From a virus (lineage: Duplodnaviria; Caudoviricetes), in IMG/VR virus record IMGVR_UViG_3300045588_000058, positions 1 through 57,624 of that record: DNA of 57,624 nt; one strand, given 5' to 3'. Position numbers and translations under genes: made by a program. The notes beneath the pieces were generated by a model. That model saw nothing but the letters and a program-made list of their open reading frames with translations, searched no databases and had not been told where the DNA came from. Of the stretch, positions 13,901 through 42,765 are shown one piece after another. Numbering within the stretch: the first letter of the stretch is position 1; every line of letters begins with the position of its first letter.

Positions 13901-16900
13901 AGAATTGTAATGTAGAACCATATTGTAATACAGGCGTACCATCAGGGAACTTTATACTTTGTCCATTATGAAATATACTTCCTGTTGTTGGTATAACAAT
14001 TAGATTCTCTTGAGAACCTATCTTATCTTTATCAATAAGAATACCTCCTACATGATTTCTTTCTTTAACTCCACTAGCATCTTTATTCTCCATTGGAATA
14101 CCTCTAGATACAGCAAACTCAAAAGGTGCAGGCATTTGATCCTGATTAGCAATTAAGTCTTCTCTAAATTTAATGTATTCTTTTTTATATGCTTCAAATA
14201 GTTCTTGTTGCTTTCCTCTGAAACGTGGGTTACCTTTACTATCAGTGGTCTTGGTAGTACGCATTGTTTGGAAGATAACTTTCTTCATATCTTCTTCACT
14301 CAATTGCTTACCAACTTCTCCTAGTTGTGCACCAGTCTTATCAATAAAATAAGATTTACCACCCTCTTGTACAATAAACACTTGACCTATGAATCCATTC
14401 TCAACATCTAATACATTAGACATATCATAACTACCATATGATAACTTAACAAGTCCTTCTAGTCCTACTAATGCTTCTTGACCTGGAGTTACAAGAATAG
14501 CTCTCATGTTACCTTTATTAGGTAATGAGTCTATATTATTTAAAAACTCTCTTGAGTTCTTAACATGTTGTGCAGATAACGTAGGATCATTATAATCCTC
14601 TGATTCAGTAATACCTGATTGAAAGAATATATTAGCATCAATGATAGCACCTGCCTCATCCATAGGGGTAAAGGAAGTGTCTGTGGTAATAACAACTGTA
14701 CCAGAATTGTTTTCTATGTCAGATTGTTCTTTGGTTAACTGCTCTTTATTCTGAACAAGTTGTTTTTGTTGTGCTACTTGTTTTTCTTTTTTTGCAATAA
14801 GATCTCCAGCTTGTTTATTGAATTCTTTTTCAATAGCATCAATTAACTTTTGATTATCAAGATCATTTATAAAAGCTCTTTTATCTAATACATCTTCAAG
14901 CTTTGCTGTCTTTAGTTCAATATTATAACTAAGATATTCTTCTCTGTCCAATACAGTGTCAATAGCTTTATTTAATATATCAGCCATTTCTTCAGAAGTA
15001 TTATTTTCATCTGAAATGTTATATTCTTTAAACTCTGTCGGTGTAATAAATTTTATTTGACCATTAGGAAGTCTCACTTCAAACTCACCACCTAATGTTT
15101 GAGAGAGTACTGTAATCTTTGGAGCAAGTTGTAATGTGGTTCCTTCTTTTCTTAAAGGTTCTTTTAAAGAATATTCTTTATTAACTTCTAATTCCTTCTC
15201 TGTTATTAAAGGTTTTCTTTTTCCTGGAACTTTTTCTTGTTGTTCCACTTTAACATCTAGTTCTTCAGACTCACCAAATTCAAATTCTGGATTGTATTCA
15301 TAATTTAATGGGTTCTTTGTTATATCAGCATGCTCTTGTAAGAATAGTTTTCTACGTAAAGATAATTCAATAACATCTGATAGATCTGCTTTAAGTTGAT
15401 CTTTCAAGTCAGAACGTATGTCAAGTTCATTAATTTGTTTTAATGCTGCATCTGTAGCTTCTCTGCTAGGTTTATTATTTAATATAATACTTTGTAATAC
15501 ATTATAAGTGTCTATACCTGCTGCAGCTAAAGATTGATTAGCTAATGGTATACGAAGATCGTAATCAGCTATCTTGCTAGCTGCATACACCATCTTATCA
15601 ATAACTAAAGGAGAATATTTTCTAAGTTGTTTACCATCAGGAGATAATATTGGATTACCTTCTTCATCTTTTAATACTTCTCCAGAAAATCGTAAGTTAG
15701 TAGACTTAATTATTTCATTTGTATTTTTTGCTACTTGTTCAAAACTATTAAGTCTTTTTTGAAATGACTCAACAGTATCTTCTACATTACCTATACCTTG
15801 TTCTTTTAATGTAGCAAGTCCTTCTTCAGATATTCCCATTTGTTTTAAATCAACAATATCCTCTATAACCATATTAAACCTTCCGTAGTTTATACGAGAA
15901 GTTAAATAGTTATGCATTAAATCAGTTTGTGCATCTAAAGCCTCTAATTTATCCCCTTGTACAACAGCATCTTGATATTGTCCTTGTAATGCTACACCTC
16001 TATTAATACTTTCCATTCTTTGTAAGAATGCTTGTTGAAAGGTTGGTGCATCATTTAGTCCATTTATAAAAGTTTCAGTATTTGTTTTCTTTTGTTTGTT
16101 TTGAGTAATTGTTCCACTAGGACCAAAACTTTGCATAACTCCTCCAGTAAGAGCTCCCATGATACCTCCTTCAATTCCTTCTTTAGATCTTAATGCTCCT
16201 TTTTTTTCATCAAAAAGACTATATTGTGCACTTTCTAGAATAGCATCTAATACATCAGAAGAACTTCTATTTTGTCTTCCTTTTTCAAAATAATGTTGTG
16301 TACCAACTTGTAAAGCATATTGCCCTATTTCTTGTGCACCTTCTTTTGGATCAAACATATACCCTCCCACTCTTTTTGCAGAACTGTATAATTTTCCAAA
16401 TTTTGTTGTAGGAACTACTACATCAGCTACATATTTTCCATTTTTTAATACAGCATCTTCTACATTTCCTAATAAACCATTAGCAGCATTCTTTGTTGTT
16501 TTATATGATGAACCTAATAAGTTAGGTAATTGTTGAAACTCAGTAATTGTAAGCAATGCCATATTTCCTAAAAAAGAAGTTGCTCCCACACTTGCAGTTA
16601 AGTCATTGATATTTTCTAATTCTATTCCCGTAGGAGCATACCCATGTTCATTAGTATATTTCTGAATTAAAGATTTTTTATATTCATTAGATGTCTGTAA
16701 TGCTTCAAATGAAGCTTCTCCTGCAGATGAATAAGCAGCAATAGCAGTTCTTCTAGCAGCATCATTGAATCCTGCAAAAGCATTTGTAGATTTAGCTAAA
16801 TTTGCTAATTTAGAAGACTTAGTTGCTAAGTCAGCAATAGATGATAATTCTTTTTCTAATATAGCAGCTGCCTCAATATTTTTAGCAGAACTAAAAGCTC

Positions 16901-23536: not shown

Positions 23537-25033
23537 TTAATTGTATTTGTTTAGCCAGCCTCCTGGTTGTGGTTTATTGTAATTGGTAAAGTTAGTCAAT
23601 TGATCTAATTGTTGCAAAGTTTTTTGATCTTGTTGGTTCACACCATTCTTAGCCATAGGATATTCTGTCACCTTCTTACCCTTGAACTTATAATTCTTTC
23701 CTGGTTTCATTAGTTTTGTATCTCCTGTATCAGATATTCCTAATAAAGGTTCATACACTCCTTCCATTGTTATATCAGTAGATCCTATCTCAACAACCTT
23801 TCCCCAGTTATCAGGATTCCAATATCCCATATCATCTTTGATAACTGAACCATCTCTACTAATAGTCTTTGGTTTCCAATCTAATCCTTGTTGATAGTAT
23901 TGCATTTCTTTACCATTCTGTGCAGAAGCATCTGTCTTATCAGTTTGATTTCTACGTGGTCCTTTACTAGGAATACTTCCTGTGCGTGCGTATGAGAAAC
24001 CTGTAGCTCCAGGGAATGATCCTCCTGTTTGTGCTTCAGGAACATAATTAACTGGATAGACAGAACCACCCATTTGATAATGAGGAATCGCAGTTCTTGT
24101 ATTATAAGGACTAGGTGCTATGTTTGGTAAATCTCCATTCTCAGGATAGTATTTATATTTACTTTCTGTTCCTCCAAAGTTTTGATTTACTGTGTCAGTT
24201 ACATCATAATATTTAGGTGTTCTAACAGGAACTCTAATATTTGGATCTGCTTCTATATCATTATCTGGATAAACTAATCCTGCTGGTTGTAAATTATTTT
24301 GTATTGGTAAATCCAAAAGAGTTTCTATGTTTTGCTTAGGTTTAGCATAAACAGGACTAACTGCATAACCATCATAATACTCTGAAATTGGTTTTATTTT
24401 TGCATCATACACATCAGGAGATGTATAAAAATTAATATTTTCATCTTTTATTCCAAGACTTTTGTAATAATTTATTACTTTTTTTGATTTATTTATTACA
24501 TGTTTATCTTCTCCACCACTTATTGCTCTTTTTTCAAAACCAGGAACTGTTGTTGCAGTATATGCATTTATATTAGGATTTTGTTTTGAAAAAGCAGCAT
24601 ACTCTTTATATGCTTTTCCAGAATAATTACCTTTTTTTGTTTCATTTAATTGTTTATTATATAATACTTTTTCTTTAGCTAGCAGTTTTTCTATTTTTTC
24701 ATAATCCATTTTTAAAGGTTTATAAGAACTTAAATTAGTGATACCTAAGTCTTTTTGTTTATTTGATGTAATAGGATTATTTTTTTGAAATTGATAAGCT
24801 TTATAAAGTCTTAAACTATCTTGATAAGCTTTATATCTAGGATCGTTTTTTGATTTTACATATATAGGTTTCTTTGTTCCACCTTGAGCAATAGGAATCT
24901 CTCCTCCTTCTTGAAACTGTCCTCCCCATGCAGGAGAACTATTTCTTCCTACATTGCTGTATCCATCTCCTTGAAATCCTTCAGGAGCAGATACTTCATA
25001 ATCATTATAATTATCTAACCACTTATTTTTCAT
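23537..25033 (-). CDS. Internal virion cargo protein with xQxGG motifs
   Basis: 498 aa; FQEGG, YQMGG, AQTGG, AQNG, AKNG; C-terminal ITMEGV...DTGDTKLMKPGKNYKFKG domain. Confidence 0.65.
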   Translation of the reverse strand: MKNKWLDNYNDYEVSAPEGFQGDGYSNVGRNSSPAWGGQFQEGGEIPIAQGGTKKPIYVKSKNDPRYKAYQDSLRLYKAYQFQKNNPITSNKQKDLGITNLSSYKPLKMDYEKIEKLLAKEKVLYNKQLNETKKGNYSGKAYKEYAAFSKQNPNINAYTATTVPGFEKRAISGGEDKHVINKSKKVINYYKSLGIKDENINFYTSPDVYDAKIKPISEYYDGYAVSPVYAKPKQNIETLLDLPIQNNLQPAGLVYPDNDIEADPNIRVPVRTPKYYDVTDTVNQNFGGTESKYKYYPENGDLPNIAPSPYNTRTAIPHYQMGGSVYPVNYVPEAQTGGSFPGATGFSYARTGSIPSKGPRRNQTDKTDASAQNGKEMQYYQQGLDWKPKTISRDGSVIKDDMGYWNPDNWGKVVEIGSTDITMEGVYEPLLGISDTGDTKLMKPGKNYKFKGKKVTEYPMAKNGVNQQDQKTLQQLDQLTNFTNYNKPQPGGWLNKYN

Positions 25034-25655
25034 AATTTATATCTTTATATTTCCATATAAATCCTCCACATGTTTTTGTAATTTTCTTTAATGCAAAAGT
25101 TATATTACTAGTACTTAAATTTAAACTAATAGAAGCAGATTTACCTGACTCCCACTCTTTTATAAATATACCATCTAAACTATATTGTAAAATAGATTTA
25201 TATTTTCCTTTTGCAGCTTTATGTTTATGCTCTTCAGAATGTTTTTTACCTAGTTTGCTTTGTTTAAATAGTTGTTTATATTCTTCTGACCATTTTCTAC
25301 CAGTTGCTTTGGTTCTAATTTTATCTCTAGTCTCTAGCGATGTTAACGATACATTATTAGGATGTGTTGGTTTTAAATTATATCCATACTTTCTATTATG
25401 GACATTTAATAATGTAGCCCAATAGTGTTCTTCAGAATACAAATACTCTTCTTTACATTCTTCTAAAATTTCAAATAAAAAATTTTCTTCACCATACATA
25501 TCCCAAGCTCTTTGTAAATATGTATTATTATGTATTCCTGTTTTTAACTGTCTTTTATGAAGCCCCCATCTAACATTAAAAGTTCTTTTAGTACAACCTA
25601 CATATATATGTCTAGTTATAATATTAGTTATGGTATATACACCTATACTGTTCAT
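25023..25655 (-). CDS. Free-standing GIY-YIG homing endonuclease with NUMOD3/NUMOD1-type DNA-binding modules
   Basis: GVYTITNIITRHIYVGCT, catalytic R/E/N pattern (RW..H, EEHY, GYN), KKHSEEHK repeats, QYSLDG.FIKEW...GGFIWKY tail. Confidence 0.9.
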   Translation of the reverse strand: MNSIGVYTITNIITRHIYVGCTKRTFNVRWGLHKRQLKTGIHNNTYLQRAWDMYGEENFLFEILEECKEEYLYSEEHYWATLLNVHNRKYGYNLKPTHPNNVSLTSLETRDKIRTKATGRKWSEEYKQLFKQSKLGKKHSEEHKHKAAKGKYKSILQYSLDGIFIKEWESGKSASISLNLSTSNITFALKKITKTCGGFIWKYKDINYEK

Positions 25656-26521
25656 TACTTATAACTTATTTGGGCTGGAGCTGTCAAAAACTGGCTCACC
25701 AAATGAACGTTTGATTGATCGTCTAAAATATGTCTCACTTTTAATTCTTTTGCTCTTAGAGGAGCTTTCTTAAAGCTTCTTGAACCATAATCCATATTGT
25801 CTTGATTAACTACCTTATCAATAGAAAGACTCTCGCATGATGTAAGAAATAATGGAACTTGAGAACTTTTTTGAAGAGCCCAGAATGTATTATATTGATA
25901 GAAGTTATCACTCTTAGTATATGTGATTGTTTTGCTATCTGTATTGAATATCGGATATTGCATATATGCTCTCATATTATTAAGAGGTTTTGCTACTAAG
26001 TTTATTACTCCTGAACTTTGTTGATTGTTATAAAGAATTACTTTATTAAACCATTTATTGTTTGTTTCTATTCTTGAGTTATAACTAAACACACCATCAG
26101 GTATATTTAGATATTCATATGCTTTTGTATAATCTTTTACATTCTGAAGAATTTCATCTTGAAATTGATAAGCAAATGGATATTCAATAATATATGGTGC
26201 TATGTTTCCATAGTAAGAGTTATACAATTGTATATTAGTTAAATGTCTCCATATACATCCTGTTACAGTTTGTACTAATTTAATATTTGCATACTCTTGC
26301 TCAGTAATATCTTTTAAAGATAATGTTTTTTCTGATTTACATGTACCAGTAGATTTTATTGTAACCATAGTTACATTGTCATTTACAATATAACTTATTC
26401 CTCTTGTTAAAACTTTTTTAGTAACTCCCTCTGCTATTACATTCCCAAACTGATCAAAGATTAAGAATGGACCTGCAGTAGGGTTTACTTGAGTTAATTT
26501 TATTGTTATTGTTTTTGACAT
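25655..26521 (-). CDS. Probable C-terminal part of tail muzzle/stabilisation protein, with added N-terminal beta domain
   Basis: 288 aa; IWRH...YYG...PYIIEYP...FNKVILYNNQQSSG...LRAK..KVRHI resembles muzzle C-termini; first ~70 aa homologous to ORF 35310-35819. Confidence 0.65.
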   Translation of the reverse strand: MSKTITIKLTQVNPTAGPFLIFDQFGNVIAEGVTKKVLTRGISYIVNDNVTMVTIKSTGTCKSEKTLSLKDITEQEYANIKLVQTVTGCIWRHLTNIQLYNSYYGNIAPYIIEYPFAYQFQDEILQNVKDYTKAYEYLNIPDGVFSYNSRIETNNKWFNKVILYNNQQSSGVINLVAKPLNNMRAYMQYPIFNTDSKTITYTKSDNFYQYNTFWALQKSSQVPLFLTSCESLSIDKVVNQDNMDYGSRSFKKAPLRAKELKVRHILDDQSNVHLVSQFLTAPAQISYK

Positions 26522-26530
26522 ATTAATTTA

Positions 26531-29500
26531 TTAACAAGGTCCGTTATTAATTAATGTTACTTCAGGAGGTGTAACTACACTTCCACTTCGTGCACAGAAT
26601 GTTTGAGTTGAAGGTCCTCCTTCTACATTACCAATGTTTACAGATTGTGGATTTTCTGAACAATCAGTATATGTTACTGTTACAACACCCACTGTTGTTT
26701 TACTTATTGTATATGAAAAACAATTTAATGTTGTACTAGTTGTAGTGGTAGTTGTAACACATATTGCTGTTTCAGTAATTATTCCTGATACAACATGATA
26801 AACTTCTGTAGTAGTGTTTGCACTTTCATCTGTAAAATACCAACCATCTGCTATTGTTGTACAATCTGTTGTACCATTATTAACATATATAATTTGTCCA
26901 ACTGTTAAACTTACAGCACTTATATTAATTAAAGTATATTCATAACCTACATTTGTTGTAATATAAGCAATTGCTGCACATGCATCAACTTGACTTCCTG
27001 TAGATACTACTGTTGATGGAGGGGCTATTATATTATATCCTGTAATAAATTGATAGTTGTTCACGGTGTTTGGTCTTTGGCATGGTGGTGGTACAGTTAT
27101 AACTCCTGTTCCTACAAGAGTACAATCAGTTAATATTACTTCTCCAGCTAATGTACAATCTAATGGAATTTCTGTAGTAGTAGTAGTGGTAGTTGAAGAT
27201 GTACTACTAGTAGTAGTAGTAGTTGTTGTACTTGGTGTAGGAATTAATTCTCCTACAACAAAATCAAAATCATCACAACATCCATTAATACCAGAATAAA
27301 AGAAATTGTTTTCTGCTATATACCAATTAGGAATATAACTATGAAAACTTATCCATGTTTTTGTATTTACATTAAATGAAAGTGTCCAAGATTTATTGCA
27401 AAAGTATTCAGAATCTTTTAAATCAACAACTGTTGTTAATACTAAGCTATTAATAACTTCCTCTATATAAAATTCTTTTGTTGTAGAATTGTATTTAATA
27501 TCTTTATTTAATGGAATGTAATCTAGTTTACTAATTATAACTCTATCAAATTTGCTATCATATACAGCATGTAAACCTACTCCATTAAAATGATTATCTG
27601 TATCTACATTTGGAAACCATCTTAATATTTCAAAAGCTAAATGGTCTGTAAAGAATCTATTCATTCCAGAACCAAATGCAGATAAATCGTCTACTTGTGT
27701 TCCTTGTATAAGAAACACTTGTCCTCTTTTAGCATCTACAGTTATTTGTCCTTGAGGAATCTTCAATAACATTTTGTTTTGACTTCCTACATACCCAAGA
27801 TCTGTTTCAGCAAAATCAATAGGAGGTGCTCCTTTAAACATATTAGGATTACCTACATATGCAGCTTGAGGATTACTTGTATCAATTGTTAATAGATTAT
27901 TATACAATAATGATTTGTTTTCAAATCTAGCAAGAATTGCTCTATTTTGTATACCATCTAATGATATAAGATTACCATAGTTTTGGGGAAAATCAAAATA
28001 AGAAATTGCTCTATATGTCAACCAGCTATTAACTCTATTATCTGCATCTGTATTTTGACTATCAGAGTATATTGCTCTAAATGGATAATTTGTATAACAA
28101 GCTTTTCCATCCCAATCAGGAGGAAGGTGTGTAAATGTATTTTCTTTATTTTGTTTAGAAAATGTTACATTATATGTATATGTATTATCATTAGCAATAC
28201 TTACAAAATCTTCTTGTAACCAATCATCAGGAATACTTGTAGATACATGTGGCCAAAAGTCTCCTTCTTTATTATTAAATGCTTGCCTAAGATCTGTATT
28301 GTAAGAACTTTCACAATAAAAATTAGGAATACCATATGCAAACAAATAAAAATATCCATCATAGAATGTTCTATTAGGATTAGTATCTGCTTTAGCAGTT
28401 GATGGTATTAACTCTTGACTATTTTTACAATCAAATTCATGTGCTTTATAAGAAATAATATTTGAAAGTTCTCCTGAATCATTTCCACTATAATTGCTTA
28501 ATATAGATCTAGCAGAATGCCAATATTTAGGATAAGCTATATTTCCTATTTCATCATAGAATACATCTGAATCATCAGGAGCATTAACTCTATTATCTAT
28601 AAAGAATGGAAGTTTAGTTTTAAATGCAAAACGAGAAATAAATGTATCTCCTCCAAATATTGTAGCACTTCCTGTAGTTTTAATATTTTTTTGAAACCCT
28701 GTATCAATTGTATCATAAGAATATATTTGTCCCCATTGATTTACAAATGTATTTTTCAATGAAGCATAGTATGATAAAACTTGTATATCTTTTTCTTTTG
28801 CTGGTGTAGCGCATGAACTACCACCACTTATAGTCATTCTAGATTTATCCGTTATTCCTAAAGCAGAAACACTAACACTATTACTAGGAAATGGAAGTGG
28901 AGATAAATATTGTTCAGAATTGTTTAATTCATTAGTTTTTATAAATACAGAAGTTTCTCTTTGATAGTTATTTATAGGAATATTATCATCTCCTACTGCT
29001 TGAACTCCAGGTATTAAATATTTTGCTAAATCAATAGTTCGTTGTTTAATACCTAGATCATTTGGTATAAATGTATTATAATCATAACTAGCAATTGAAT
29101 TATATGAATATGCATAATTCTTTCTAGTTATACCATTTATATATATCTGTAAATATGCTTGATATGCTGTAAACATAGCAGTGGCACTAAAATCACTAGT
29201 TATATTACCTAATCTACTAGAGCTATCAAGAGCATCTTCTTGTGCTTCTTTTGTAAGTAATCTATATTTAGCATTACTTTTAACTTGTACAAAATGTGCT
29301 TTACCAGCACCAAACATTACATTTTCTAATTTAAGTACATCTCCTAAAAAAGGTTGTCCAAAAGAAGTTTCTGGAGAATTAAATATTTGTCTATATCCAA
29401 GATTAGTATCAGTATCAATTGATGGTTGTGGTATAGGAATTTTACATTGATTTGCTGCACGTACATTTTGATCAGGTAAAGCTTGAATAGTTACTCCACA

Positions 29501-31705
29501 TACATCCTTTGTACTAATTTTAATAGGTTCTGTTCCAACTTTTACATGAATAATATAACTAGAATTAGTTGGCGATCCTTCTACCCATTCTTGTTGTTTT
29601 TCTCCAAACTCATCTGTCCATTCTGCTGTCCATCCAGCACATGCTTGAATAACTGTACCAGTAGAAGCAATTCTCCAAACATTATAATTACCATATGCAG
29701 ATGTACCTTTACCAGATATAATAGTTGGTTTTGCTATAGCACAAATTGAATGAGCACCTAAATCATTTAATTTTTCTTTTATTGATTTATTAGAATTACA
29801 ACTAATATATTCTATTTCAGCATATCCATCTATTCCAAATTCTGTAATGGTTACAACAAATGGTTCACATAATTGTGTCCATGCATTATTAGATGCATTT
29901 AAAAATGGATCTTCACCTAAGTCATTATATGGATAATTAGGAAAATAAAAATCTTGATCTTCTCTCGAATATTTATTTACATTTCTAAGTATACCTTTTG
30001 CTACAATAGATTTATTTGTTCCTCTATCTCCTCTTAATATTTTAAATCCTATTATAGATGATTTTTCTTCTTGCGTTAAATTAGAAGATAATATTAATGA
30101 TTTTACTTGATCAACATCTATTTTTACACCAATAGGAAATACAGAATTATTTTGCATCACCATAGAGGATGCTCCTGTGTACAATACAGTTGATTCTGTT
30201 ATTGGAGAAATTAATACATCTGGAAACTTATGATGTCTAATAGGTTCACCTGCAAGGTCTCCCCATACATTAACATTACAAGGATAAGTTTCTTCTGACT
30301 CCCAATATGCAAAGTTTCCATAATTAAATGCAGTGGCATTACCAATGTTAGTTGTTGGATCTACTGGAGATGCACCAATTAAAGAAGCAGTGTTATATAT
30401 TTTCCAATATGGTGCACTTGTTCCTTCACCAATAAAATCTTGATTTGTATTAGGAACACTAACTAAATCACTACTTACTGATTGTCTACCAGGAATATGA
30501 AAACCATCTGTTTGTTTTCCATTATCTAAAAGAAATGCAATTTCAAATGCATACACTTCATCTCTAAGATACCCTCTTAAATTAGTAGCATTTAATTCAT
30601 TTGAATAATCTTCATTAGCAGGTAATTTATATGTTTCCCATTTAAGATTTATTTGTGATGCTATTGATTGATAATTAATTCTATCTACAGATATAAGACC
30701 ATCCCATATAAGAACATCTTGAGCTGTAGTTAAATCTTCCGCTATATCATAATAAGGAAACTTTTCAAATATATCATTAATAGATAGTTTTATAGCAGAA
30801 ACATCTTGTCCTGTATAAGTAATTTGTTTTGACACATTGTCAATAAAGTATGTACCTACTAATTCTACTGAACTAATATCATTAATAGTTTTAATTACAG
30901 CAAGATTAAAATATTGAAATCCTCCTGTAACATCAAGATTATCAACGTTTATAATAATTGATTTACCTACATTATAGTTATAATTAACTGTTGTTATATT
31001 TATATCTGCAATAGGTGTAGGGTTTGTAATAGAATAATATGATGTGTACGGATTACCAGATGCATCAGAGTATTGTGCAGCAAATTGATATGTTCCTGCA
31101 AGCAATGCTCCTCCTGTAGTAATATCTACTATAGCAAGATCAGGAATATTAAAATTAGGTTGTATTTTTAATTGATTACAATCTAATATATCTGTATAAA
31201 CAGGATCACAAAGCTCTGAGGTAGGTGTTAATAAATATGGAATATTATTAATATCCAAATATCTTCTTTGATTAAAACCATCTGTCCAATATATTTCTGT
31301 TGTACAATTTGTAATTTTATGTACAGTTTTATGTATAGGATGATCAATATTAAAATTAAGACAAGAACTATTAACTAGTTTATGATATATACAATCGTTA
31401 TTATCCATATATCCTATCTCTGAACCACCATCTAGTGGGTTAGTAATAAAGAATATATGTTTGTTTTTTTCGTTAATAAAATGCGTTCCTATTAACACAT
31501 AGCTTTTTGGAAATGTTAAACAAAGTTCATTACCTTGTTCATTTTGATAATTAACAGAACTAGAATCAAAGTTTTCTAAAGCAGCATTTAATGCATAAGT
31601 TAAAGTACCTGATTTAACTTGGTTCAAAGTTTGATCCATGTTTAATCCAATATTGGCACTGTTAAATTCTATTTTAATATTTCCTTGTGATTGTTCTTCA
31701 GCCAT
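26531..31705 (-). CDS. Tail muzzle/stabilisation protein (P22 gp10-like) with Thr/Cys-rich C-terminal extension
   Basis: 1724 aa; GLNMD...NEQGN, GYLRDEVYAF, IRHHKFP, FGGDTFISRF, DAKRG, WTLSF...WISFHSY motifs. Confidence 0.85.
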   Translation of the reverse strand: MAEEQSQGNIKIEFNSANIGLNMDQTLNQVKSGTLTYALNAALENFDSSSVNYQNEQGNELCLTFPKSYVLIGTHFINEKNKHIFFITNPLDGGSEIGYMDNNDCIYHKLVNSSCLNFNIDHPIHKTVHKITNCTTEIYWTDGFNQRRYLDINNIPYLLTPTSELCDPVYTDILDCNQLKIQPNFNIPDLAIVDITTGGALLAGTYQFAAQYSDASGNPYTSYYSITNPTPIADINITTVNYNYNVGKSIIINVDNLDVTGGFQYFNLAVIKTINDISSVELVGTYFIDNVSKQITYTGQDVSAIKLSINDIFEKFPYYDIAEDLTTAQDVLIWDGLISVDRINYQSIASQINLKWETYKLPANEDYSNELNATNLRGYLRDEVYAFEIAFLLDNGKQTDGFHIPGRQSVSSDLVSVPNTNQDFIGEGTSAPYWKIYNTASLIGASPVDPTTNIGNATAFNYGNFAYWESEETYPCNVNVWGDLAGEPIRHHKFPDVLISPITESTVLYTGASSMVMQNNSVFPIGVKIDVDQVKSLILSSNLTQEEKSSIIGFKILRGDRGTNKSIVAKGILRNVNKYSREDQDFYFPNYPYNDLGEDPFLNASNNAWTQLCEPFVVTITEFGIDGYAEIEYISCNSNKSIKEKLNDLGAHSICAIAKPTIISGKGTSAYGNYNVWRIASTGTVIQACAGWTAEWTDEFGEKQQEWVEGSPTNSSYIIHVKVGTEPIKISTKDVCGVTIQALPDQNVRAANQCKIPIPQPSIDTDTNLGYRQIFNSPETSFGQPFLGDVLKLENVMFGAGKAHFVQVKSNAKYRLLTKEAQEDALDSSSRLGNITSDFSATAMFTAYQAYLQIYINGITRKNYAYSYNSIASYDYNTFIPNDLGIKQRTIDLAKYLIPGVQAVGDDNIPINNYQRETSVFIKTNELNNSEQYLSPLPFPSNSVSVSALGITDKSRMTISGGSSCATPAKEKDIQVLSYYASLKNTFVNQWGQIYSYDTIDTGFQKNIKTTGSATIFGGDTFISRFAFKTKLPFFIDNRVNAPDDSDVFYDEIGNIAYPKYWHSARSILSNYSGNDSGELSNIISYKAHEFDCKNSQELIPSTAKADTNPNRTFYDGYFYLFAYGIPNFYCESSYNTDLRQAFNNKEGDFWPHVSTSIPDDWLQEDFVSIANDNTYTYNVTFSKQNKENTFTHLPPDWDGKACYTNYPFRAIYSDSQNTDADNRVNSWLTYRAISYFDFPQNYGNLISLDGIQNRAILARFENKSLLYNNLLTIDTSNPQAAYVGNPNMFKGAPPIDFAETDLGYVGSQNKMLLKIPQGQITVDAKRGQVFLIQGTQVDDLSAFGSGMNRFFTDHLAFEILRWFPNVDTDNHFNGVGLHAVYDSKFDRVIISKLDYIPLNKDIKYNSTTKEFYIEEVINSLVLTTVVDLKDSEYFCNKSWTLSFNVNTKTWISFHSYIPNWYIAENNFFYSGINGCCDDFDFVVGELIPTPSTTTTTTTSSTSSTTTTTTTEIPLDCTLAGEVILTDCTLVGTGVITVPPPCQRPNTVNNYQFITGYNIIAPPSTVVSTGSQVDACAAIAYITTNVGYEYTLINISAVSLTVGQIIYVNNGTTDCTTIADGWYFTDESANTTTEVYHVVSGIITETAICVTTTTTTSTTLNCFSYTISKTTVGVVTVTYTDCSENPQSVNIGNVEGGPSTQTFCARSGSVVTPPEVTLINNGPC

Positions 31706-31713
31706 GATATATA

Positions 31714-32688
31714 TTAATTGTTACGTCTTCTACCATATCTATTAGTACGGTTAGGAAGTTCATACATATTAAATCTATTAAGATCATTTTTTATTCTTCT
31801 TTGCTTTTCTTCAGCAGTTTGTTTTTTAATCTCAATACTAGCCATAATAAAAGCTTCTTCATATAATTGCTTATGATACATTAACTTCTGTTGTAACTGA
31901 TTAAAAGTTTCATCATTAGTTTGATTTGTAAGCATCTCAAACACTTTAAACTTAAGGAATGCTTCTACATATTCTCTTATACGATAGTTATCAGGAATCA
32001 ATTGGTTTCCTATTTCATCATACTCTGTAGCATAAAATATTAAATGTACAACACCATTTCTGAAGTTAGTTACAAATTTATTATCTCGTATATCAAATGA
32101 ATCAATACTAGAACTACCAGGTGTAAAATTATTTACAGGAATAGGCTGATTATTAAAATCCCAGTTATTTGTATATTCAACATCACAATGTTGTTTTGCA
32201 GATATATTTCCAGGTTTAAGTAAATAATTATGAGTAAATCCTCTTGTAACGCTATTGTTTGTTTTATACACAGCTTGTACAAGCACAGGCATACATGTAC
32301 CCTCACATCCTGGATCTTGACAACCAACATTATTACAGGCAGTTCCTGCAATAGTCAATGGACTTACTTGTATTGTAGTTGCACTTGATGCTTGTGAATA
32401 AAATGAATTAGCTGATTGATAGGGATAAGCTGCTACTTCTGTAGTCATCCATGCTTCTCTTACAGCATAAAAGTTATCAGGAAGTCTAGCTTGGAAGTCT
32501 TCTACAAAAAGAATCTCATCAGTAATTACATAAGTTGTTCTTCCTAACTTTTTTAAAGCTTTGTCTAAATAAGTAGGGAATAATAAATCATCTACAGCAG
32601 CAGTATCGAAATAACTTTTAAGTTCTTCTTTAACAGTTGAGTAAACAGGTTCTGGGCTTATAAAAGCGTATTTATAGTAGTAGCTCAT
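31714..32688 (-). CDS. Tail ring/tube protein
   Basis: 324 aa; ARLPDNF, F..G.V.L.YA...DE.G..LIPD pattern; position before the muzzle gene. Confidence 0.7.
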   Translation of the reverse strand: MSYYYKYAFISPEPVYSTVKEELKSYFDTAAVDDLLFPTYLDKALKKLGRTTYVITDEILFVEDFQARLPDNFYAVREAWMTTEVAAYPYQSANSFYSQASSATTIQVSPLTIAGTACNNVGCQDPGCEGTCMPVLVQAVYKTNNSVTRGFTHNYLLKPGNISAKQHCDVEYTNNWDFNNQPIPVNNFTPGSSSIDSFDIRDNKFVTNFRNGVVHLIFYATEYDEIGNQLIPDNYRIREYVEAFLKFKVFEMLTNQTNDETFNQLQQKLMYHKQLYEEAFIMASIEIKKQTAEEKQRRIKNDLNRFNMYELPNRTNRYGRRRNN

Positions 32689-32691
32689 AAT

Positions 32692-33171
32692 TTATTTTTT
32701 CCATTCGATGTATAAATGTTGATACTTATCGTTGGTCTTTAAGTAATGCGATAATAGTCTTGATGTAAGTCTGGAAGGTTTAAAATACCAAAGATCAGAG
32801 TTTTTAAAACGTGCTGTAGATTTAAACCACATCCAACCAAAAAAATATCCTTCTGTGTGATAGTTAAAGTTATATATAACCTTTCCTTTTTCTTTAGTTT
32901 TTTGCCAATCAATAGGAAGATTAACAAACTCTTTGCCATCAATCCCTTTCATTTTTCTTCTTTTCTTTTTATTAATAGAAAATTCTCCAAATCCAAAAGG
33001 TAGTTTTGCTTTAAGGCCTGTTTCTAATATATACTCTTTAAACATTTCATTGTAAGTGTATATTATATTTCTCCAAGCATCGTAATTAATTATTATAGAT
33101 GGGTGTTTTTTACAAAAATTATTATAATTTTCTTTACTAGAAGATCTCCAATCTATTTTTGTCCTACTCAT
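32692..33171 (-). CDS. IHF/HU-like DNA-binding protein (crAss tail-region type)
   Basis: 159 aa, basic; KLPFGFGEFSINKKK, IDWQKTKE...YNFNYHTEGY. Confidence 0.75.
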   Translation of the reverse strand: MSRTKIDWRSSSKENYNNFCKKHPSIIINYDAWRNIIYTYNEMFKEYILETGLKAKLPFGFGEFSINKKKRRKMKGIDGKEFVNLPIDWQKTKEKGKVIYNFNYHTEGYFFGWMWFKSTARFKNSDLWYFKPSRLTSRLLSHYLKTNDKYQHLYIEWKK

Positions 33172-33177
33172 ATTTTA

Positions 33178-33900
33178 TTATTTTGGAGAATTAGGGGCTT
33201 GACCATCTAATCCTTCTTGAGCTAAATCAGTTTTAATATTAAAATAAGTAGATAAAAGTTTTTGAGAAGTAAGTTGTAACACTTGTTGTTCTAAATATCC
33301 TGGAAGAGGAAACTCTTTATCTAAAGGATTTTTACAGATTTCTTCTGTAGTGTATTCTGGTGTACCACATCCACATTCTGGATACATAATATCATTGGTT
33401 ACATCTTCTTCAAAAAATGCTACAAATCTAATTGCTTTAAGCATTGGATTGTTTACATATAGATATCCATTAGATATCCAGAAGTATTCTTCATTTTTAA
33501 TTACAGGAAGTTTAAGTAAGTTTAAATATCTATTAATAGAAATTTCTTTTAACTTCTTTCCTTTACCACTCATAGCATTAATAGAATAAACTCCTTGTAT
33601 TACATACTGATAATTACCTTCTGATATACGTGGGAGTTTAAATTTAGTTCTTGCTATTGTACATTCATCTACATAATCACAACATTCAGAAATTGATACT
33701 TCACACATCTCAAGACATGGTATAGTAGTAAACAATGTATCAGTAGCCCAAAGCTTTCTAAGATTTGTTTCACGTTTAATAAGCAATAAAGAATTATTTC
33801 TTATTTCGCTAGCTATTGCTCTATCTGTTATCAAAGAGTCAGTCGAAAGTATCTTGTGGACACTTCTAACATCTGATACTAATTTCCTTAATGTTGCCAT
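33178..33900 (-). CDS. Tail tubular/ring protein (P22 gp4-like)
   Basis: 240 aa; TLRKLVSDVR...ITDR, YFWISNGYLY, DKEFPLP; synteny with IHF-like and muzzle genes. Confidence 0.75.
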   Translation of the reverse strand: MATLRKLVSDVRSVHKILSTDSLITDRAIASEIRNNSLLLIKRETNLRKLWATDTLFTTIPCLEMCEVSISECCDYVDECTIARTKFKLPRISEGNYQYVIQGVYSINAMSGKGKKLKEISINRYLNLLKLPVIKNEEYFWISNGYLYVNNPMLKAIRFVAFFEEDVTNDIMYPECGCGTPEYTTEEICKNPLDKEFPLPGYLEQQVLQLTSQKLLSTYFNIKTDLAQEGLDGQAPNSPK

Positions 33901-33905
33901 GTTAT

Positions 33906-35129
33906 TTATATTCTTGATTCAAATTCTGCAATTTTTCCTGTTTCTTTATCATAAACAAGTGCTAATGCAGCTCTAATTGAATGCACAAAGTTATTATCTT
34001 CATGCCATCTATCTGTAAATGAAAGACTTGGCATTTGTTGTATTCTTACTCCTTTAATTTCTTTAGCCATATAATGATGCTTATCTCCTGTATGGATTTC
34101 TCTATATTTAGCTTCTCCAAAATAAGAACTATATTCAGGATGAGTTGCAAATAATAAAGGTAAATCATCTATTTTACAATTACCATGATGATAACCAATG
34201 AAAGTATTTCCTAATACTACTGCTTTTACTACACTATGTTCTCTTATAAAGTTTACATCATAATCTTTTTTAAAGAAAACTTCTAATGCGTGAGCTAAAT
34301 AAAAAGATTTAGTTCTATCATGATTACCTTGTACTAAAACTACTGTAACACTTTTACAATGATCTCTTAATGTATTAATAGTATCTACTAATAAAGAAAA
34401 TCCTAATTCATATTCAGAATGATATTCAAGAATTGTATCTTGAGGAGTTCCGTTTGTAGTTTGGTTTTGATAATTGTCGGTGTGAAAAAAATCGTTACTT
34501 ATAGGAAAAACTATATGTTCAATACTATAATTTTTTATTATTTTAGTAATTAAATCTTCCACTATTTTTAAGTAGTTTGAAGCTCTTTTAAATGGACAAT
34601 TGTCTCCATCTACAACTTTTTTAGCTAAGTGAAAATCAGATAAAGATAATTCAACATCCACTAAACTTTCTTCATCTAATACTGGTTTATTAATAACTTT
34701 TATGTTATTAGGAATATAATTTTCTAAAAACTTAGCAAAGTCTTCAGGGGAGTAATCTTGTGGTTGTTTTCTTTTACTAAATATTGAAGAAGTAAAATCT
34801 CCATTTGGTTGTAGTTTAGACCAGTAGTTTGTTATAACGTATTTATCTAAATTTATTTTATGTAATGCAGCTAGTTCAATATCATCTTTTGGTTCAAACT
34901 TTGTAGTGATTGTACTTTCTATTGTACCTTTTTCAACATTTACTTTTCTAATTTCTCCTATAGGAATGTTAACTATAACAGGAGTTTCTACATCTTTTTC
35001 TCTTAGTTCTTTAAGAAGTTCATTCACTTCAAATTCACTAATTCCTAATCTTTCAGCATAGAATTTTTTACTTTTCTTTTGACTTAATAACTCTTCTAAC
35101 TTAAATAATAAATCTTGATTTTCAGACAT
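33906..35129 (-). CDS. Calcineurin-like metallophosphoesterase with N-terminal HTH
   Basis: SDFH, NDFFHTD, QGNHD, HHG, HTGDKHH motifs; N-terminal YAERLGISEFEV. Confidence 0.85.
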   Translation of the reverse strand: MSENQDLLFKLEELLSQKKSKKFYAERLGISEFEVNELLKELREKDVETPVIVNIPIGEIRKVNVEKGTIESTITTKFEPKDDIELAALHKINLDKYVITNYWSKLQPNGDFTSSIFSKRKQPQDYSPEDFAKFLENYIPNNIKVINKPVLDEESLVDVELSLSDFHLAKKVVDGDNCPFKRASNYLKIVEDLITKIIKNYSIEHIVFPISNDFFHTDNYQNQTTNGTPQDTILEYHSEYELGFSLLVDTINTLRDHCKSVTVVLVQGNHDRTKSFYLAHALEVFFKKDYDVNFIREHSVVKAVVLGNTFIGYHHGNCKIDDLPLLFATHPEYSSYFGEAKYREIHTGDKHHYMAKEIKGVRIQQMPSLSFTDRWHEDNNFVHSIRAALALVYDKETGKIAEFESRI

Positions 35130-35156
35130 AAGTAGTTTAATTTAATTAAATTAGGG

Positions 35157-35188
35157 TAAAGATAAAAATAGTTTTCTTACTATCCAAA
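35157..35188 (-). promoter_or_regulatory. Bacteroidota-type promoter TTTG-N20-TATCTTTA
   Basis: Near-consensus -7, exact -33, same geometry as 20278-20309. Confidence 0.65.
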
Positions 35189-35204
35189 TAAATTTAATTA
35201 AATA

Positions 35205-35235
35205 GGTTATTCTTTATAACTAAAATAGTTATAAA
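35205..35235. promoter_or_regulatory. Conserved 31-bp palindrome-containing box, copy 2
   Basis: GGTTATTCTTTATAACTAAAATAGTTATAAA; contains perfect TTTATAACTA-AAA-TAGTTATAAA inverted repeat. Confidence 0.75.
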
Positions 35236-35265
35236 ACAAAAACTCCCCTAGTAAACTAGAGGAGT
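35232..35265 (-). terminator. Rho-independent terminator
   Basis: ACTCCTCTAG-TTTA-CTAGGGGAGT stem followed by TTTTGTTTT. Confidence 0.8.
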
Positions 35266-35309
35266 AAAAACTCTCGGAAAACCAACAAACCTTGAATTTT
35301 TATATTATA

Positions 35310-35819
35310 TTATTCTATTGTTGGGCAAGTTACAGCACTACCAATAAATTCTGTTCCGCCCCATAGTCTTGCATATTGACCATCGCAATACCAAAATCCT
35401 CCTGGTGCAAAAAGAGTCTCATTAATATCTTGGTACAGACCAGTAGATATATACCAAATTGGATCATCTAGATAATAGTAGACTTCATTACCTGGATCAC
35501 CATAAAAAGCACACGCCTGTGCGGCACTATCATTTGATACTGATAAGGTTATACCTGCTTCGGGTGGAGCAGTTGTAGTGGTTGTAGTGGTGGTGGTTGG
35601 ACTAACTAATGGAATATCTATATAGTTTACACAATTTCCTGTAGACTTTACTCTAATTGTAGTAGTAAAATCTAAAACTGCGGAAGAAGAATATCCTGCA
35701 AGCAATGCAGATTTACTTACTCCTGTAGCAAATGCTGATACATAGCCATCAAAATTTGTATAAAGATCAAAAGGACCTGAATCTGTCCCTGCTGTTGTTA
35801 ATGTTATTAATACTGTCAT
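35310..35819 (-). CDS. Two-domain Thr-linker decoration protein
   Basis: 169 aa; N-domain TLTTAGTDSGPF...KSTGNC, poly-Thr linker, C-domain ACA...GFWY...C. Confidence 0.7.
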   Translation of the reverse strand: MTVLITLTTAGTDSGPFDLYTNFDGYVSAFATGVSKSALLAGYSSSAVLDFTTTIRVKSTGNCVNYIDIPLVSPTTTTTTTTTAPPEAGITLSVSNDSAAQACAFYGDPGNEVYYYLDDPIWYISTGLYQDINETLFAPGGFWYCDGQYARLWGGTEFIGSAVTCPTIE

Positions 35820-35850
35820 TGTATATAATATTTAAAAGTTATAATAATAG

Positions 35851-36174
35851 TTATTGTTCAATAGCTGTTCCAGCAAGTGTACAATCTAAAACAACAGGTG
35901 TTGTTGTAGTAGTAGTTGTTGGTGTTACAGTAGTTGTACTTGTTGTTGTGCTTGTACTACTACTTGTTGTAGTTGTAGTAGTAGGTATTACAGTTGTTGT
36001 AGTTGTAGAAGTTGATGCACTTGTTGATGTTGTTGTTGTTAAAGGTAATGTAGTGGTAGTGGTAGTAGTTGTTGGTGGAGGAATTGTTATTACTCCTGTA
36101 CCAATAAGTGTACAATCAAATATAGGAATTGGTGTTTTTGATCCCCCGTAAATGTGCCAAGATATCTGATTCAT
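35851..36174 (-). CDS. Small Thr-rich protein with a DCTLxG motif near each end
   Basis: 107 aa; TAATG overlap with upstream gene; FDCTLIGTGVITIPPP-(T/S)n-LDCTLAGTA. Confidence 0.7.
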   Translation of the reverse strand: MNQISWHIYGGSKTPIPIFDCTLIGTGVITIPPPTTTTTTTTLPLTTTTSTSASTSTTTTTVIPTTTTTTSSSTSTTTSTTTVTPTTTTTTTPVVLDCTLAGTAIEQ

Positions 36175-40242: not shown

Positions 40243-40866
40243 TTATACTACTGTTGTTGTAGTGGTTGTTGGACAAATTACTTCTTCACAAGTATCTTTT
40301 CCACTAAGATTTGATATATTATTTGGAGATACATCTGCATAACATGCTGTGTAAGTTTCAATTAACATTTTAAATCCTTGATAATAATACCATTTTCCAA
40401 TAGTCAATGGTTCTGAATTTGAAACACTACCTCCACCTGCTCGTGTACAACTGTCACAATAATATAAATCTATATTATAATACCATGAAGTGCAATCTTC
40501 TGGTGCTATAGTTGTTGTAGTTGTTGTTGTAGTAGGACAAGGAGTAGTAGTGGTAGTTGTTGTCACTCTCACTGTAGGTGTATACATAGGTTTAGACTCA
40601 CAACCTAAAGTTAATAATATAACTTTACTAGCTATCTTAGATATAGAATAGTGGTAAACATAATTTGGATTAATGTTTTTATACATTAATATTCTTTTAT
40701 ATGCTATTAATTGCAACATATCAGTAGCAGGTACAGATTGATTTAACATAAATGATATATTATTATACAAACTATTACCAAGTTCTGCTAACTTACAATC
40801 TATTCTTTTAAGTAATTCTGGAATGTTTACACATTCTGGACAATTAGTTAATCTAGTATATAACAT
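40243..40866 (-). CDS. Structural protein with Thr-rich linkers and Cys-rich C-terminal domain
   Basis: Start moved from 40905 to ATG at 40866 (MLYTRL), 1 nt after the stop of the small Cys-rich ORF. Confidence 0.65.
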   Translation of the reverse strand: MLYTRLTNCPECVNIPELLKRIDCKLAELGNSLYNNISFMLNQSVPATDMLQLIAYKRILMYKNINPNYVYHYSISKIASKVILLTLGCESKPMYTPTVRVTTTTTTTPCPTTTTTTTTIAPEDCTSWYYNIDLYYCDSCTRAGGGSVSNSEPLTIGKWYYYQGFKMLIETYTACYADVSPNNISNLSGKDTCEEVICPTTTTTTVV

Positions 40867-40867
40867 A

Positions 40868-40960
40868 TTATTTATTTTTAGCTGCGCAATGTGCACATAA
40901 TCCATTAGTCAATTGACAACCACATCCCACATTAGCTCCACATGCTGTACATTGTGCCAT
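40868..40960 (-). CDS. 30-aa Cys-rich peptide (not in ORF track)
   Basis: MAQCTACGANVGCGCQLTNGLCAHCAAKNK; fills the gap between neighbours with 2-nt and 1-nt spacers. Confidence 0.75.
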   Translation of the reverse strand: MAQCTACGANVGCGCQLTNGLCAHCAAKNK

Positions 40961-41613: not shown

Positions 41614-42765
41614 TTAAGGAATTTGAGTAGTAGAAGAAGTTGTTGTTGTTGTAGGAGCACCAGAAGTAGTAGTAGTTGTAGTGATACAATCATTATTATC
41701 AACTAAAGTTCCTAAAGCAGCTTCCAATACAGTTTCAATTGCAGCAGCAATACCACTTGTTGAAGCATTTGGTGCAGAAATAATCACTGTACTATCTTCT
41801 TGGATATAATCACCCCATTGGTAAGCAGATTTATCAAGTTCATTGAATTTGATATAATAGCTATCGTAAGTTACTCCATTAGATACCCAAGACTCAAAGT
41901 TCTCATTGTATCCATTCATTCTGTAAAGGTGTTTCAAATACCCAGCTTGGTAGCTGTAGAAATTTTTCTCTAGTTGAGCAATTTCTCCAGATTGTCCTGA
42001 AGCATAAGAAGAACGTTGTGTAATTGCAGAGTTAGCAACAATGTTACAAGAATCAGCAACAATAAAGTCAGCAGTAGTAGCTGGACCAGAATATACAAAA
42101 GTTCTAAAAGACATTCTGTCATATTCAAAAGGGAAAGCAGCAATATCACAAGGTTGACCATATTTAGTTAATGGTTTTCCTGTAATACGTAAAATTGTAC
42201 CACCTATATTTTCAAATGTATAGAATGTGTTGAAACTAATGTTATCAGGATTAATACCAGGAGCTTGTGCAGTCAATTTACCAATCAATTGGTTAATCAA
42301 TGCATTTGTATCAACATCTACACATGGATCAGATCCACAATCACAACAAGGTGCTTGTACAGTTACTGAACGTGTAAATCCATTGAAATACAATGTATTA
42401 ATGTAAGAAGAACTAGCACGTAGTGTTAGTGTTAGTGTATCACCACATTGAACAGAAAAATCAGTTACATCAGTAATTTGATTAGCAGCAGTTGGACAAC
42501 CAATTACTTTGTACCATTCAGATACATTGGATCCATTTGAAGCAATTCTGTCAGATCTTTTTGATCCTTGTAAATACGTGTTAACTCTACCTTGAGCAAC
42601 ATAGAAATAAGGCTTAGCAGCAATATTAGCAGCAGTTGCTAATGAGTAATCGCTTCTAAAAATACCCACTGTACCTGCAGATAGGTCTTGGGTTGAACCA
42701 GAGCTAGGAAGAGCAGTCTGTCCTACTGGAACCACGAATAACGTGGTTAATGAAAAATCAGCCAT
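41614..42765 (-). CDS. Auxiliary capsid/decoration protein with C-terminal Thr tail
   Basis: 383 aa; third gene after MCP; beta-rich; YASGQSGEIAQLE, YDSYYIKF; high-expression-type codons. Confidence 0.65.
   Translation of the reverse strand: MADFSLTTLFVVPVGQTALPSSGSTQDLSAGTVGIFRSDYSLATAANIAAKPYFYVAQGRVNTYLQGSKRSDRIASNGSNVSEWYKVIGCPTAANQITDVTDFSVQCGDTLTLTLRASSSYINTLYFNGFTRSVTVQAPCCDCGSDPCVDVDTNALINQLIGKLTAQAPGINPDNISFNTFYTFENIGGTILRITGKPLTKYGQPCDIAAFPFEYDRMSFRTFVYSGPATTADFIVADSCNIVANSAITQRSSYASGQSGEIAQLEKNFYSYQAGYLKHLYRMNGYNENFESWVSNGVTYDSYYIKFNELDKSAYQWGDYIQEDSTVIISAPNASTSGIAAAIETVLEAALGTLVDNNDCITTTTTTSGAPTTTTTSSTTQIP

Follow-up and report, generated by a model that had tools for sequence, protein, structure and literature searches.

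The stretch of DNA considered here, hereafter the window, is an IMG/VR virus record (IMGVR_UViG_3300045588_000058) of 57,624 bases, with an estimated completeness of about 50% (CheckV), a G+C content of about 30% and with nearly all open reading frames (ORFs) of at least 100 aa on the minus strand. Judged by its sequence, it belongs to an uncultured, environmental crAss-like phage. We focused on two gene pairs, P0004/P0003, which encode a muzzle protein in two pieces, and P0001/P0002, which lie downstream of a gene for a 638-aa fibre with BppL_N repeats; ring proteins 1 and 2 are encoded between the two loci (Table 1). A first-pass annotation, made by a model from the letters alone, had noted that in both loci an ORF carrying the motif DCTLxG lies directly upstream of an ORF headed by a domain of about 70 aa with one conserved Cys (the GPF domain), and had proposed that peptide and domain are partners in the assembly of virion appendages. 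The arrangement holds in both places, with the spacer TAA TAA ATT AAT, then ATG, between P0004 and P0003, and with 31 nt between the end of P0001 and P0002. In the following, we refer to the peptide as plug and to the domain as socket, after the docking role that they may have.

Relatives of this phage number in the hundreds in IMG/VR, at about 110 kb each and with terminal repeats in some, while searches of public phage records gave no match to 12 kb of the window (megablast) or to P0002 (tblastn).

Table 1. Coordinates of the two loci and of neighbouring ORFs in the window.
Feature	Position	Strand	Size or residues	Basis
P0001, ORF with two DCTLxG candidate plugs	35851..36174	-	107 aa	
P0001 N-terminal candidate plug, FDCTLIGTGVITIPPP	36073-36120	-	residues 19-34, Cys21	motif count, translation
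P0001 Thr/Ser rope	35899..36072	-	58 residues	translation
P0001 C-terminal candidate plug, VVLDCTLAGTAIEQ	35854-35895	-	residues 94-107, Cys98	motif count, complex-model interface
GPF domain of P0002 (candidate socket)	35610..35819	-	residues 1-70, Cys63	paralogy, complex model
P0002 Thr linker and C-terminal 3-Cys domain (payload)	35313..35609	-		translation
Exonuclease-like ORF	33906-35129	-	407 aa	phrog_704, E 2.4e-53
P0004, muzzle N-part	26531..31705	-	1724 aa	PF25731
Muzzle N-part core	27284..31705	-	P0004 residues 1-1474	PF25731; phrog_37948, E 2e-117
Insertion start: GCCDDFDFVVGELIPTP, then 20-residue Thr/Ser linker	27173..27283	-		translation
Muzzle candidate plug 1, LDCTLAGEVILT	27128-27163	-	P0004 residues 1515-1526, Cys1517	motif count, translation
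Muzzle candidate plug 2, DCTLVGTGVITVPPP	27083-27127	-	P0004 residues 1527-1541, Cys1528	motif count, translation
Muzzle-tail payload: domain A (26753-27082), second Thr linker, domain B (26534-26728)	26534..27082	-		AlphaFold2
GPF domain of P0003 (candidate socket)	26312..26521	-	residues 1-70, Cys61	AlphaFold2, paralogy to P0002
Muzzle C-part, from TG-C89-IWRH	25658..26275	-	P0003 residues 83-288	phrog_15100, positions 1589-1776 of 1783
GIY-YIG homing-endonuclease-like ORF	25023-25655	-	210 aa	PF01541, E 5e-6; weak NUMOD-like C-terminal match

The split muzzle

P0004 scores 125.5 bits (E 2.8e-36) with the muzzle family PF25731 (crAss_MUZ), for which the Pfam gathering cut-off is 27, and one PHROG profile covers both pieces, its N-terminus matching P0004 and its C-terminal end matching residues 89-281 of P0003. 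The window thus does not hold this muzzle as one chain, its C-terminal 206 residues being placed in the separate ORF P0003; the PDB gave no match by sequence for either protein. Among 91 unsplit muzzle relatives of 868-1924 aa, the closest is P0154 (1701 aa), to whose positions 1-1490 residues 1-1474 of P0004 align with 68% identity and to whose positions 1496-1701 residues 83-288 of P0003 align with 76% identity, so that just five residues of P0154 remain between the two matching stretches. The split that the first-pass annotation had suspected is borne out by this end-to-end alignment on unsplit relatives, and on these sequence grounds P0004/P0003 is a split member of the crassvirus muzzle family.

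In place of the five-residue loop, the window carries an insertion of about 340 residues, composed of a tail of about 250 residues, a stop, a start, and 82 residues of GPF domain and spacer. The inserted tail runs in the order GCC, Thr linker, two plugs, domain A, Thr linker, domain B. Domains A and B each fold in AlphaFold2 (pLDDT about 80-93); domain B, a small beta-sandwich in the model, matched nothing clearly related (VIA-align, best Z 4.5, with domain A barely tested), and in relatives this payload is freely swapped for other domains. Since the unsplit relatives match only residues 83-288 or so of P0003, unsplit muzzles are without the GPF domain, and clusters of plugs are likewise found in 0 of the 91. 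All of the 80 muzzle loci that we retained out of 415 relatives preserve the split, together with a full-length C-part headed by the GPF domain. On our reading, the split muzzle arose when a cassette of tail, stop, start and GPF domain entered the short loop of an unsplit muzzle.

The insertion is flanked by Cys residues that are invariant in the split clade, namely a GCC at P0004 residues 1475-1477 (27275-27283) and C89 of P0003 before IWRH (26255-26257). Both are absent from the 91 unsplit relatives, where the GCC is missing together with the linker and where, in P0154, Ser takes the place of C89; GCC and C89 are a candidate disulfide staple between the muzzle halves. The rest of P0003 beyond its GPF domain, which needs the propeller, stays at low confidence in the AlphaFold2 model of the lone chain, and the two pieces would probably reassemble mainly by propeller completion, with plug and socket adding a further tie.

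Two other observations concern this gene. A sub-clade of relatives (L114, L119, L120, L136, L147 and L156, around position 4980) carries a GPF gene of the P0002 type between the two muzzle halves; the N-part of these muzzles terminates in (D/N)CSLAGTAVE behind a Thr linker, the peptide that also ends P0001 of the window. Furthermore, the GIY-YIG ORF overlaps the genes on both sides, namely the muzzle C-part gene at its end and the following gene at its start.

The plug motif and the GPF domain

The four DCTLxG copies reported by the first-pass annotation are all present on the minus strand, two in the muzzle tail and two in P0001. A total of 17,404 aa in the 29 window ORFs of at least 100 aa would be expected to yield far fewer, with a mean of 0.002 and a maximum of 1 in 2000 residue shuffles. 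The P0001 N-terminal plug and muzzle plug 2 are identical in 13 of 15 residues; as the DNA of the motif copies is only 68-73% alike, a recent duplication of DNA was ruled out as their origin. P0001, described beforehand as essentially two motifs on a Thr tether, does consist of two plugs joined by a 58-residue Thr/Ser linker, to which an 18-residue N-terminal leader has to be added. Its start overlaps the stop of the fibre gene (TAATG).

The motif as first proposed proved to be too narrow. Because strict DC[TS]L.G occurs in just 28 of the 80 relatives, we redefined the conserved unit as C-x-(L/I/F)-x-G, 11-12 aa long and carried on Thr-rich linkers, of which DCTLxG is the local form. In muzzle tails the unit takes the 11-residue form (D/N/x)-C-x-(L/I)-x-G-x-x-x-(L/V)-(T/F), and of the 74 evaluable tails, 73 have one to three tandem units with one Cys each, mostly pairs, immediately behind the first Thr linker; L010 has no plug, and L047 has a single one. 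Fibre-like proteins of relatives show C-x-F-x-G with a period of 12, in three copies in L155 (2172-5534) and in two in L130 (4638-6443), and these genes are followed by arrays of three and two GPF genes, respectively. In L161, L154 and L108 the copies are placed between Thr linkers like beads on a rope. When the muzzle tail was modelled as a lone chain with AlphaFold2, the linker and both plugs stayed below a pLDDT of 50. Peptides so widely conserved and yet predicted to be unfolded on their own count in favour of docking.

The GPF domains of P0003 and P0002 are related to each other at E 4.7e-6 (35% identity over 67 aa) and contain one Cys each (C61 and C63), in agreement with what had been noted at the outset. 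Invariant in the family are M1, G15, P16, F17, L39, G42 and C63, none of them a Lys, Asp or Glu. AlphaFold2, run with 73 aligned sequences, gave six strands and a short helix for residues 1-80 of P0003 at pLDDT 81-93, and the domain is, as modelled, a small Ig/FN3-like sandwich of 65-70 residues. The best fold match in VIA-align is 8gl8_D, a type IX secretion C-terminal domain (Z 6.2, rmsd 2.3 A, 64 aligned residues, 17% identity), with FN3 domains next at Z about 5, all of these matches falling within the stated background range of the tool. Foldseek against the PDB gave no match at E 0.001 or better, and a PDB sequence search with the GPF profile gave none at E up to 10. Type IX secretion C-terminal domains are Ig-like sandwiches of about 75 residues that end secreted proteins of Bacteroidota; we rejected such an assignment on account of this background-level likeness, the phage origin of the genes and the N-terminal position of the domain.

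This position is strikingly uniform. Among the fetched loci, 213 of 213 GPF domains stand at the N-terminus and start 0-3 residues after Met, and the best 150 of the 2006 representatives start at residues 1-6, apart from one at residue 24. The family comprises 2006 representative clusters at E <=0.001, or 1343 at E <=1e-10, and has no Pfam, PHROG or PDB sequence match; complete genomes contain 2, 2, 2, 2 and 3 copies. A Thr linker follows the domain in 133 of 149 proteins and leads to variable Cys-containing domains or to nothing, and in 21 non-redundant proteins made up of GPF domain and linker only, the GPF Cys is the sole Cys. The number of Cys residues is odd in 66 of 77 non-redundant GPF proteins (p 1e-10) and in 117 of 149 representatives (p 1e-12), a parity that fits a GPF Cys left unpaired within its own chain.

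P0001 and P0002 have no match in Pfam or PHROGs. The 3-Cys domain at the C-terminus of P0002 recurs in L083 and L084 in other contexts; in L084 (5824-6327), an unrelated-looking viral contig, it has 74% identity and follows a hydrophobic segment at the N-terminus, with no GPF domain in front. On its downstream side P0002 is adjoined by the exonuclease-like ORF, which lies inside the tail gene block with ring protein 2 on its other side. Bare Thr linkers also end two further ORFs of the window, at 41614-42765 (-) and 40243-40905 (-), which terminate in ...TTTTTSSTTQIP and ...CPTTTTTTVV, and a Thr linker plus IP, TP, LP or one hydrophobic residue is the end of the muzzle N-parts and GPF proteins of many relatives. 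Elsewhere in the window, a 4232-aa ORF spans 4956-17654 (-), with neighbouring ORFs of 1606, 857 and 1061 aa.

Evidence for docking and competing explanations

Residues 1-72 of P0002 (alignment of 100 rows) were modelled in three runs together with residues 70-107 of P0001 (alignment of seven rows), alongside three controls. The pair reached ipSAE values of 0.59, 0.61 and 0.61, compared with 0.02, 0.01 and 0.00 for the controls; in the calibration of the tool, a score this high was obtained for 58 of 80 solved complexes and for 2 of 110 mismatched pairs, which is a rough guide only, since our own alignments were used. The three runs share at least 98% of their contacts, with a partner pLDDT of 68-73. 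As no sequence relative of the GPF domain exists in the PDB at E up to 10, this result does not reflect recall of a sequence. The peptide side of the interface is exactly LDCTLAGTAIEQ, P0001 residues 96-107, which pairs antiparallel with GPF residues 3-11, at strand A, in the register 4:36, 5:35, 6:34, 7:33, 8:32, 9:31. On the GPF side the interface includes residues 1-14, 44, 55, 57, 59, 62-63, 65-67 and 69-72, among them the last strand and C63, and in this register C63 can reach only P0001 residues near L96-T99, with C98 among them. The addition of the P0001 C-terminal peptide as a beta-strand beside strand A of P0002 is thus supported in silico. Since the C-terminal end of the peptide comes to lie next to the N-terminus of the GPF domain, the two strands would resemble a hairpin cut at the gene boundary. 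The first-pass annotation had pictured the peptide as a strand completing the GPF domain; a strand beside strand A, with the Cys in the interface, is what the model returns for this one pair, and the domain is modelled as folded by itself.

Co-occurrence of the two modules across genomes, also anticipated in the first-pass annotation, points in the same direction. A motif-first scan of viral contigs gave 16 hits, 14 of them evaluable. All of these 14 show the motif as the terminal peptide of an ORF, behind a Thr linker, and have a GPF ORF that starts 12-19 nt downstream of the stop; they are not 14 independent events, because they represent about six sequence types of one muzzle context. Of the other two hits, one lies at a contig end (L176) and one (L168) beside another Thr-linker/CELTG terminus, after which a GPF ORF follows. 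Further plug-GPF contexts are the small ORF after the fibre in the window and small fibre-like ORFs in L161, L168, L130, L154 and L165. For 16 genomes, two loci together covered the tail module; in these, the numbers of plugs and sockets correlate (Spearman 0.89), and L-type plugs equal the sum of muzzle-type and TAG-type sockets in 16 of 16, fifteen times as 2 = 2 and once as 3 = 3. F-type plugs are present only together with VIP-type sockets (5 genomes with both, 1 with VIP only, 0 with F only, 10 with neither; Fisher 0.0014, uncorrected for relatedness).

Taken together, we consider it probable that the region encodes a two-part docking system of plug and GPF socket for tail-tip proteins, the split muzzle included. 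The plug, 11-12 residues with C-x-(L/I/F)-x-G and a short beta-strand, is displayed on Thr-rich linkers at the tail of the muzzle N-part, on small rope proteins such as P0001 and on fibre-like proteins of relatives. The socket heads the muzzle C-piece as well as a large family of small proteins whose variable Cys-containing domains follow on Thr linkers. Going by the model, the plug would lie antiparallel to strand A and against the last strand, hairpin-like across the gene boundary, and the counts suggest one socket per plug with at least two matching subtypes. The invariant Cys residues of plug and socket might, as a guess, lock the pair by a disulfide. P0001, with its two plugs, might act as the bivalent tether for adhesin domains that the first-pass annotation had proposed. 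Plug and socket of the muzzle would also offer a docking place for a second GPF-headed protein.

Several observations weigh against such docking. The complex model was built on our own alignments, with only seven rows for the peptide, and the modelled interface shows no enrichment of the residues by which TAG and VIP sockets differ (2 of 6, p 1.0). The GPF domain is modelled as folded alone at high confidence and accordingly shows no sign of a missing strand, and P0002 has four Cys residues, an even number. Plugs and sockets do not balance in the window (4 plugs for 2 sockets) or, over the whole record, in the terminal-plug sub-clade (3 for 2), and L010 has no plug within its 16.9-kb locus, although its muzzle GPF domain with the Cys is kept. 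The counted genomes are related to each other, so that the p-values overstate independence. In addition, the rule that a plug gene directly precedes the GPF gene, valid for both window loci, is not general, as the immediate upstream neighbour lacks a plug in the case of 30 out of 31 single GPF genes. The plug for such genes would be the spare one on the muzzle tail, which fits the 2 = 2 counts.

A more far-reaching version, which we regard as tentative and as distinctly less probable than docking itself, sees orthogonal and gene-portable pairs, C.L.G with TAG- or muzzle-type GPF domains and C.F.G with VIP-type ones, each locked by a disulfide, as an assembly code by which interchangeable receptor-binding domains would be hung on Thr-rich ropes at muzzle and fibres.

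Among the competing explanations, the one that survives best, though we think it unlikely, is that the C.L.G units associate with one another or stiffen the Thr-rich stalks, as disulfide knots between the six muzzle tails or between fibre chains, with GPF as an unrelated anchor to another virion surface and both riding on one mobile cassette. The prevalence of tandem plug pairs with one Cys each would suit such knots, as would the surplus of plugs over sockets in the window and several relatives, and segments that depend on oligomerisation are likewise expected to be unfolded in a lone chain. The accessible part of the crAss001 report also describes tail and fibre proteins held by inter-subunit disulfides (PMC10172136). 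Self-association has more difficulty with single terminal plugs that exist without a tandem partner, with a plug subtype that tracks the socket subtype, and with a complex model that scores 0.61 against 0.02 in controls while using exactly the motif residues.

Less likely still is the notion that GPF is one more Ig-like adhesin or decoration domain in a shuffled Thr-linker repertoire, found at N-termini because recombination at repetitive linker DNA brings in cassettes with their own start codon, and making no specific contact with plugs. The generic Ig/FN3-like fold with a best Z of 6.2, in the background range, the many ORFs of these phages that end in bare Thr linkers, the free swapping of payloads and the lack of an adjacent plug for most single GPF genes all agree with it. 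An adhesin module should, however, sometimes stand in internal or C-terminal positions, which is contradicted by 213 N-terminal cases in 213, and the one invariant lone Cys, the odd Cys parity, the complex model and the count match of 16/16 also speak against it.

Synthesis of plug ORF and GPF ORF as one chain, by read-through, frameshift or hopping across stops that are not real ends, was rejected as very improbable despite the short spacers (-1 to 31 nt) and the shared frame of P0004 and P0003, since two tandem TAA codons end P0004, spacer lengths produce all three relative frames, each GPF domain begins 0-3 residues after a Met, and the sole tRNA found in the window is one for Met. A gene that fuses plug and GPF domain outright was also sought and not found: none of the 213 GPF domains is internal, the 149 GPF proteins show just 3 weak sites that look like plugs, and none of the 91 unsplit muzzles bears any.

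Relation to known systems and significance

The first-pass annotation knew of no description of such a system in phages, a statement that has to be narrowed. According to the accessible part of its published account, phage A1002 builds its nozzle from two proteins, nozzle-rope and nozzle-base, each of which completes the propeller of the other, and its rope offers 11 sites, each of which carries a fibre dimer attached via an augmented beta-sheet; the podophages GP4 and VP1 have similar chain-like fibres (PMC13730344). No sequence relation to these fibres was found, the PDB giving no match to the GPF profile at E up to 10, and the gp40, gp41 and GP4 gp80 chains are not among the fold matches listed for GPF by VIA-align and Foldseek. 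As far as that account goes, the likeness lies in a nozzle/muzzle-class protein encoded by two genes, here with the split kept in all 80 relatives examined, and would also lie in a flexible rope with several docking sites on which small proteins dock by strand augmentation, for which the model here supports strand pairing in one pair. The differences are equally evident. The rope described here is Thr-rich and bears short Cys-containing units of 11-12 residues, and the place of a whole fibre dimer of 140-170 aa is taken by a monomer-sized, portable N-terminal Ig-like domain with a linker and variable payloads. A disulfide goes unmentioned in the accessible A1002 text (PMC13730344), whereas the present system may have such a lock as well as matched subtypes. 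The rope-and-fibre phages of that account are podophages, as opposed to the crAss-like phage here.

For crAss001, the accessible text presents the muzzle gp44 as a one-chain hexamer with a ring-joining domain, a seven-bladed propeller like that of the T7 nozzle, two Ig-like domains and a crass domain, with a length that varies by insertions in the crass and IG2 domains and with tail parts held by disulfides (PMC10172136). P0004 belongs to the same Pfam family. In contrast to gp44 as described there, some 340 residues and a gene break have been placed in a short loop near the C-terminal part of the propeller. To the extent that the literature was searched, we found no account of a split muzzle or of Thr-rich linkers in Crassvirales, nor of strand complementation in phage receptor-binding proteins.

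Chaperone-usher pili and the type V pili of Bacteroidota are chains without covalent links, in which each protein donates a strand that completes or extends the Ig-like sheet of its neighbour; chaperone-usher pilins lack a strand and need a chaperone. The proposed docking resembles these donor-strand systems in that a strand of one protein would join the Ig-like sheet of another, and differs from the chaperone-usher pilins in that GPF is modelled as folded alone and that the donor strand belongs to a unit on a linker, either at the C-terminus or internal. Genes for a chaperone or an usher were not found, the Pfam and PHROG matches of the ORFs searched at 23.5-42.8 kb all being to phage structural proteins or a nuclease. 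SpyTag/SpyCatcher, the split CnaB2 domain (PDB 4mli, 9oj3), is another case in which a short peptide adds a strand to a small Ig-like domain, and its fold matches GPF at Z 4.8-5.0, a background level; its lock is a covalent Lys-Asp isopeptide bond, with a catalytic Glu, in an engineered split, unlike the putative disulfide of a natural pair here. In the Ena endospore appendages of Bacillus, subunits are tied by Cys-bearing connector peptides. The Ena 'disulfide-linked pili' (PDB 7a02) gave a weak match (Z 3.5-4.5) to muzzle domain B only and not to GPF, and fold and context differ.

If the docking proposal is right, it would give a function in virion docking to an unannotated N-terminal domain of 2006 representative clusters and a role to the Thr-linker-terminated ORFs of a large uncultured crAss-like clade. 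It would also account for the assembly of a muzzle that a 340-residue insertion has split, and would show a cassette exchange of receptor-binding payloads. Should the disulfide lock and the two matching subtypes hold as well, the pairs would be a natural, ready-made tool for peptide/domain ligation, and if they form orthogonal pairs, host range could be rewired by a cassette swap that leaves the tail machine untouched, as a natural counterpart of SpyTag/SpyCatcher. The rope-and-fibre principle, seen by cryo-EM in a few podophages, would thereby extend to Crassvirales-like phages, in a form recognisable from sequence alone.

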